Shown: piece after piece, positions 3,260 to 3,410 of the stretch
Layout: every line of letters begins with the position of its first letter
How positions within the stretch are numbered: position 1 is the stretch's first letter
DNA from: a virus
Taxonomy: Duplodnaviria; Heunggongvirae; Uroviricota; Caudoviricetes
DNA: 33,644 nucleotides
Virus record (IMG/VR): IMGVR_UViG_2700989508_000034
Reading direction: 5' to 3' (one strand)
The notes under the pieces: model-generated
What the model was told of the DNA's origin: nothing
The model's input: only the letters and a program-made list of their open reading frames with translations
Database searches by the model: none
Program-made: the position numbers and the translations under genes

Positions 3260-3410
3260 ATGCAATCGATCGACAAAAACGATCGATTCGATTTGTTTAA
3301 TTGATACAACAAATAGATTTAAAAGTCATCAACAATGATTCAGGGCGGTGATTATTTACTTAAAGAAACGAAGAGTTAGGTGGTGAAAACGATCATAAAA
3401 TGATCATTTT
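3260..3410 (-). promoter_or_regulatory. com-mom upstream regulatory region with clustered palindromic GATC (Dam) sites
   Basis: TCGATCGA-caaaaa-CGATCGAT at ~3266-3287 and the perfect palindrome GATCATaaaATGATC at ~3391-3405; four GATC within 140 bp directly upstream of com. Confidence 0.5.

Follow-up and report, generated by a model that had tools for sequence, protein, structure and literature searches.

The window examined here, a stretch of 33,644 nucleotides from a tailed-phage record (IMGVR_UViG_2700989508_000034), holds the right-hand 31 kb of a Mu-like Escherichia coli prophage of the Sp18 type in reverse orientation, with host DNA below position ~2300. The gene com (3020..3220, minus strand; start codon ATG at 3220, ribosome-binding site GGAGG at 3235-3231) encodes a 66-amino-acid zinc-ribbon translational activator that matches the Pfam family Zn_ribbon_Com (PF10122, E 2e-12), and its 3' end overlaps mom (2329..3066, minus strand), the product of which matches Pfam Mom (PF25680, E 8.5e-77) and is 78% identical to Mom of Mu. 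A homologue of the late activator C, belonging to the Mor family and 39% identical to Mu C, is encoded at 30575..31000, also on the minus strand. The window accordingly has both components of a Mu-type gene set, overlapping com and mom genes in one operon and a gene for a C-type activator, and the com-mom genes of a Mu-like phage with a C activator, proposed in a first-pass annotation made from the letters alone, are confirmed by these matches. A 400-bp query across the intergenic region upstream of com is present in 233 (~4%) of 5426 complete E. coli genomes; the identity is 100% in several genomes of Shiga-toxigenic E. coli and 98.7% in prophage Sp18 of O157:H7 Sakai.

Several features of the surrounding DNA may be recorded here. 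A YadA-like adhesin reading frame (1-2235, minus strand) adjoins the right end of the prophage and, as its predicted N-terminus is unlike a signal peptide, is probably a host gene broken by the insertion; in Sakai the same prophage type occupies sorM, and in strain 109 it adjoins a truncated MFS-transporter pseudogene. Masked sequence (runs of N) lies within the prophage at 28360-28771 and 31278-31334. RefSeq annotates a "tRNA-OTHER" in strains 109 and M18 at the position that matches ~23090-23169 of the window, and ARAGORN found no tRNA across the whole window. A scan of the intergenic region upstream of com against Rfam gave one match only, which was below threshold and irrelevant.

Four GATC sites, at 3268-3271, 3281-3284, 3391-3394, and 3402-3405, together span 138 bp upstream of com, and a fifth lies at 3437-3440. 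The first two form the exact arrangement TCGATCGA (3266-3273)-CAAAAA-CGATCGAT (3280-3287), which is part of a perfect inverted repeat with 9-bp arms, AATCGATCG-N7-CGATCGATT (3264..3288), in which the GATCs are 13 bp apart. The other two form an exact distal palindrome, GATCATAAAATGATC (GATCAT-AAA-ATGATC, 3391..3405), with the GATCs 11 bp apart. The four sites and both palindromes are exactly as first described, and the minus-strand orientation of com places them upstream of it.

Within the window alone, the GATC cluster is not statistically unusual. The window contains 126 GATCs (~130 expected), four GATCs within 140 bp were seen in 70% of Markov shuffles, and although the proximal pair is the only 13-bp-spaced GATC pair in the window, such a pair was seen in 33% of shuffles. 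The OxyR consensus score of 14/20 is the best in the window, and shuffles reach the same score ~1.4 times per window. GATC density, the 13-bp pair, and the OxyR score are each without significance on this basis. What raises the pair above chance is its context, as the only 13-bp pair in the window and part of a perfect 9-bp inverted repeat (nine such repeats in the window against 1.1 in shuffles), and its conservation in diverged com-mom loci, so that the argument is one of comparison between sequences. As a separate observation, no GATC occurs for 2.4 kb between 893 and 3267, a stretch that includes the whole of com and mom and in which one per 267 bp would be expected.

Control of mom by OxyR and Dam is established in Mu and is the textbook case for a toxic phage gene. 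The spacing of exactly 13 bp gives the proximal pair the form ATCG-N7-CGAT, which corresponds to the OxyR dimer site ATAGnTnnnAnCTAT with its outer arms altered so that each overlaps a GATC. On the minus strand, a candidate promoter-proximal half-site, ATCGTTTTTGTCGAT (3269..3283), matches ATAGnTnnnAnCTAT at 7 of 10 positions, with both GATCs overlapping its arms. A candidate partner half-site, ATTTGTTGTATCAAT (3300..3314, minus strand), also matches at 7 of 10 positions; it starts with ATTT and not ATAG, contains no GATC, and lies 31 bp from the proximal half-site, centre to centre. Validated OxyR half-sites may match the consensus at just 7 to 8 of 10 positions, and a spacing of 32 bp is canonical for reduced OxyR (PMC4856963). 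Two hallmarks of Dam-sensitive OxyR operators (Mu mom, agn43, gtr, opvAB), GATCs within a half-site match and two half-sites spaced by about 32 bp, are both present at the proximal pair and its partner. When 14 com-mom representatives were aligned on the pair, the mean half-site score peaked at 6.8/10 on the pair and at 6.0/10 at 31 bp upstream, against a background of 2.8 +/- 0.9, and the window shares with Mu, agn43, gtr, and most com classes a second half-site at a fixed offset of 31 to 32 bp.

The likeness to Mu is close in the element itself. GATC II and III of Mu are 13 bp apart and have the same flanks as the window pair (tcGATCg...GATCgatt), and the Mu partner half-site, ATAGAAAACGACGAT, lies at the same 31-bp offset; its 3' arm forms GATC I, so that Mu has three GATCs upstream of its C box where the window has two operator GATCs. 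The expectation that the arrangement would differ from that of Mu was consequently right as to position, which is nearer com, and as to the missing third GATC, but not as to the spacing and flanks of the pair, which are those of Mu. In agn43 of E. coli K-12, the core ATCGATCGTTTATATCGATCGAT is identical to the window core ATCGATCGTTTTTGTCGATCGAT at 21 of 23 bases. The full element there, ATAGAATAAAACGAT-N17-ATCGTTTATATCGAT, has GATC spacings of 19 and 13 bp (GATC II/III being the 13-bp pair) and two half-sites spaced by 32 bp, compared with 31 bp in the window. Unlike the window element, agn43 carries a third GATC in its distal half-site; it belongs to the host, undergoes heritable phase variation, and lacks a phage activator. 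For P22 gtr, OxyR binding and its loss on methylation have been demonstrated, with GATC1/2 at -110/-97 and GATC3/4 at -46/-33 (PMC2909390). The gtr element, ATCGGTAACAACGAT-N17-ATAGATAAAAACTAT-N17-ATCGCTTGTATCGAT, has 13-bp spacing in both GATC pairs and a half-site offset of 32 bp, and its half-sites A and C have the form ATCG-N7-CGAT, as does the window pair. It differs in having three half-sites and two GATC pairs, with alternative activating (AB) and repressing (BC) occupancy, whereas the window has one OxyR-like pair.

We collected 92 mom loci, located com in 90 of them, and compared the 150 bp that precede com, which at 75% identity gave 20 clusters. A 13-bp GATC pair lies within these 150 bp in 11 of the 20 clusters, where chance would give 0.2% per sequence; the binomial P of ~1e-24 treats the 20 clusters as independent, which phylogenetically they are not. 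The cluster upstream regions contain 39 GATCs against 10.5 expected. Among the com classes the GATCs and their immediate flanks are kept, and the bases between the two GATCs vary. Across 13 distinct Sp18-type upstream sequences, the proximal palindrome and the stretch 3314-3268 are both invariant, the latter also in L021 and L034, in which the sequence becomes unrelated upstream of 3328; the most variable stretch, 3264-3249, is found just downstream of the pair. The 13-bp pair was not found in the collected mom loci of marine and alphaproteobacterial hosts. By cluster, the pair has a Mu-like position in seven (Mu and six others) and lies nearer com in four (the Sp18 type and three others). On the strength of the 13-bp pair, the half-site match, and this conservation, the proposal that a Mu-type Dam-sensitive OxyR site is retained very probably holds, with the proximal pair as the homologue of the Mu operator, shifted onto the promoter. 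OxyR binding and sensitivity to methylation are what we infer from the sequence features, geometry, and conservation observed.

A large com-mom group without the 13-bp pair (L052 and L056-L091) instead carries two GATCs 18 bp apart (-98/-80) in GATCGATAnCATCATATCGATC. An element of the form ATCGATCG-N7-CGATCGAT also occurs upstream of phage glycosyltransferase genes (L115, L123, L156, and others), in many cases accompanied by a third GATC at the agn43 distance of 19 bp, and before a com gene that is followed by a DNA methyltransferase gene in place of mom.

The proximal pair lies at -64/-51 from the com ATG compared with -91/-78 in Mu, that is, 27 bp closer to com, and the gap between pair and ATG is 47 nt compared with 74 nt. 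In Mu, these 74 nt between GATC III and com are filled by the C box, the -35 element, a T6 run, and TAAGAT, which the gap in the window cannot hold. As the pair is 27 bp closer, there is no room between it and com for an activator box and a core promoter, and the layout of Mu Pmom, with both elements between the GATCs and com, is absent from the window. As 47 nt are, moreover, too short for a core promoter and a leader with a ribosome-binding site, the operator would have to overlap the promoter or lie in the early transcribed region. For Mu, the start site was placed at position 1447 of L001 from the primer position in PMC3378877, which puts the C box at -43.5, the centre also given in PMC2582627. 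Counted from that start, the Mu GATCs are at -87, -69, and -56 and the operator extends from ~-99 to -54. It is in this upstream setting that OxyR, as Sun and Hattman are said to have found in 1996, represses Mu mom without blocking the binding of C.

Three candidate com-mom promoters, all on the minus strand, can be read from the sequence. P-B (3246..3276) consists of TTGTCG (3276-3271), a 19-bp spacer, and CATCAA (3251-3246), with a predicted start near 3239, and would place the GATCs at ~-45 and -32; the pair of the repressing half-site C of P22 gtr, GATC3/4, lies at -46/-33. Its leader of 19 to 20 nt compares with 22 nt in Mu, and its 19-bp spacer matches the spacing of Mu Pmom, where 19 bp between -35 and -10 is suboptimal. 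For all com classes in which a -10 can be recognised, the hexamer ends 27 to 36 nt before the ATG (28 nt in Mu); that of P-B ends 25 nt before it. The P-B hexamer is TATCAT in M18, L024, and L031, and varies at both key positions (CATCAA, TATCAT, TATCAA). P-A (3301..3329) would comprise ATGACT (3329-3324), a 17-bp spacer, and TATCAA (3306-3301), with a start near 3294; it is kept across variants, including L021 and L034, which have ATGACA-17-TATCAA despite a different spacer sequence. P-C, which with P-A falls within 3301..3351, would comprise a T-run and AAATCT (3320-3315), a start near 3308, and a box, TCACCGCCCTGA, at 3351-3340, and it resembles the PI region of the window, TTTTCTAACCT, which has a box, TTACCCCCTTCA, in register. 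Either P-A or P-C would place the operator at ~-20 to +40, downstream of or across the transcript start, as in agn43. The annotated agn43 5' end (IsrC, L101 position 518) falls at GATC-I, the distal half-site contains TAGAAT, and the operator extends over the -10, the start, and the beginning of the transcript; the operator in the window would do likewise if the upstream candidates are real. We favour P-B, to which we give about an even chance of being the com-mom promoter, with P-A and P-C together somewhat less probable.

A comparison of Plys and PI among the window, M18, and 29 viral relatives led to no C box being recognised upstream of com: the conserved block of Plys, CTTTTCTGATATTCCGCAAAKCCTGCC, at ~-55 to -29, is without counterpart there. 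The box TCACCGCCCTGA, which a pattern search found to be shared with PI, is weak evidence for a C box and is absent in L021 and L034, the phages of which have the same C type as L024. A 13-mer, ATCACCGCCCTGA, occurs upstream of com at 3351-3339 and again at 21321-21309, 28 nt into the major head gene (both minus strand); by a rough estimate ~0.001 such repeats are expected by chance, and the 13-mer may mark an activator site, or the coding sequence may match it by coincidence. A literature search found nothing on the regulation of Sp18 mom, its transcript starts, or unmethylated GATCs at the com-mom locus.

It can be hypothesized from these observations that the operator comprises ATTTGTTGTATCAAT-N16-ATCGTTTTTGTCGAT on the minus strand (3314-3269), with the proximal pair inside one half. 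With both GATCs unmethylated, a reduced OxyR tetramer would bind and com-mom transcription would be off. Methylation by Dam would put four methyl groups into a single half-site and prevent OxyR binding, and the methylated operator would then permit late com-mom transcription, with C as the presumed activator and Com as translational activator of mom. OxyR would act by occlusion of RNA polymerase whether the promoter layout is gtr-like (P-B) or agn43-like, and the distal pair, together with GATC 3437, would belong to a divergent plus-strand promoter. Taken as a whole, with a Dam/OxyR operator on the com-mom promoter and a separate distal pair, we consider this explanation likely; all of its functional steps are deduced from sequence.

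It is conceivable that all four GATCs instead form one Dam-controlled com-mom unit, with alternate binding of the two pairs, which lie ~122 bp from each other, or looping between them, on the pattern of Mu, pap, or gtr. The two pairs share one intergenic region, each is a palindrome, every close Sp18-type relative has them, and gtr likewise has two GATC pairs. The distal pair, however, lacks the form of an OxyR site: its spacing is 11 bp and not 13 bp, no 15-mer at 3380-3420 matches the half-site at 7 or more of 10 positions, and the best, at 6/10, reaches only GATC 3391. Strain M18 and L044, moreover, have lost GATC 3391, and L021 and L034, with operator and com intact, lack the entire distal module. 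The distance between the pairs is also at odds with the known switches, being 122 bp compared with 64 bp in gtr; the pap-type Lrp/Dam switch uses two single GATCs 102 bp apart inside Lrp sites, whereas the window has pairs, with centres 122 bp apart. Finally, a conserved divergent promoter, predicted at 3412..3440 on the plus strand (TTGACT-N16-TAGGAT) and directed away from com, has its -35 6 bp downstream of the distal palindrome and its -10 overlapping GATC 3437-3440. Three diverged lineages, the Sp18 type, M18, and L044, keep this promoter as TTGACT-N16-TA[G/C/A]GATC, together with GATCs 3402 and 3437, while its spacer sequence varies. As the distal pair is without OxyR form, half conserved, and beside the divergent promoter, the four GATCs are best read as two separate units. 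We judge the distal palindrome not to be part of the com-mom operator and a single four-site unit to be quite improbable, so that the cluster envisaged by the first-pass annotation survives in its proximal half, which has conserved OxyR half-site geometry, but not as one group of four.

The proximal palindrome could also serve primarily something other than OxyR, with its GATCs incidental: a site for C or another dimer, a hairpin in the com leader RNA, or a plus-strand terminator against host-derived antisense transcription. It is a perfect 9-bp inverted repeat, which a terminator scan lists on the plus strand with the tail CGATTTGTTT, and which would form a 9-bp hairpin in the leader if transcription came from an upstream promoter. 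Under P-B its centre would fall near -37, close to the position of the Mu C site (-43.5; PMC2582627). What the com classes keep, however, is the GATCs, the 13-bp spacing, and the flanks, while stem and loop vary (the arms are 7 bp in Mu and 5 bp in L047); the folding energy of the leader is ordinary (z = -1.1), the T-tail on the plus strand is weak, and the same element occurs at agn43 and upstream of glycosyltransferase genes without a C protein. We regard such a primary role as unlikely. A merely coincidental clustering of GATCs within AT-rich intergenic DNA, with no regulatory role, would agree with a GATC density and an OxyR consensus score that fall within the shuffled range. Against the exact 13-bp pair kept in 11 of 20 diverged clusters (the P of ~1e-24 given above) and an operator that is invariant among variants with differing flanks, this is extremely unlikely.

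The Dam/OxyR operator, which we prefer, is an ordinary variant of the known switch and involves no new mechanism. On this comparison, the unit conserved among enterobacterial com-mom operons is a 13-bp GATC pair in one OxyR half-site with a partner half-site 31 to 32 bp away, and the phages have placed this unit differently with respect to the promoter. It lies upstream of the activator box in Mu and six other clusters, whereas the Sp18 type and three other clusters have it at the core promoter or immediately beyond. The prediction for Sp18-type prophages in pathogenic E. coli is that repression by OxyR works through occlusion and not from upstream of the C box. As the operator appears to sit on the core promoter and its core is nearly that of agn43, it could further be speculated that in Sp18-type lysogens OxyR and Dam switch com-mom ON or OFF in a heritable, phase-variable manner, or that OxyR competes with C for overlapping DNA. 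We hold either to be rather improbable; if true, Mom-type DNA modification would be an epigenetically switched trait in the ~4% of complete E. coli genomes noted above, including O157:H7 Sakai.

The divergent promoter may be Dam-sensitive in its own right, and one GATC overlaps its -10 while another lies 6 to 7 bp upstream of its -35. The distal palindrome was also compared with the 19-bp Fur consensus and, at ~11 of 19 positions by hand count, is unconvincing as a Fur box. The promoter points at a leader of ~180 nt that is conserved and structured (hairpins at 3449-3479 and 3491-3520) and is followed by a small zinc-ribbon reading frame of 56 amino acids with a strong ribosome-binding site (3627-3797; leader and reading frame together 3446-3797, plus strand). 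On the minus strand, an intrinsic terminator is predicted at 3491..3520, a 13-bp stem followed by a T-run, which would insulate com-mom from upstream minus-strand transcription. On that strand, a promoter-like TTTACA-18-TAGGAT (3596-3567) and the terminator at 3520-3491 could together give an antisense RNA of ~75 nt, and the region 3596-3484 folds at -25.8 kcal/mol (z = -3.9). RefSeq places a 154-amino-acid protein, ECs_4996, in Sakai at what corresponds to 3335-3799 of the window (plus strand; L003 4823-5287), where it would cover the distal pair, and lists it in strain 109 as a frameshifted pseudogene. We rejected this as a real gene, the reading frame being frameshifted in both the window and strain 109 and M18 having an unrelated 175-amino-acid protein at that place; the long reading frame is probably an artefact of upstream extension of the small zinc-ribbon gene, and only the last 56 amino acids of the 154 look real.
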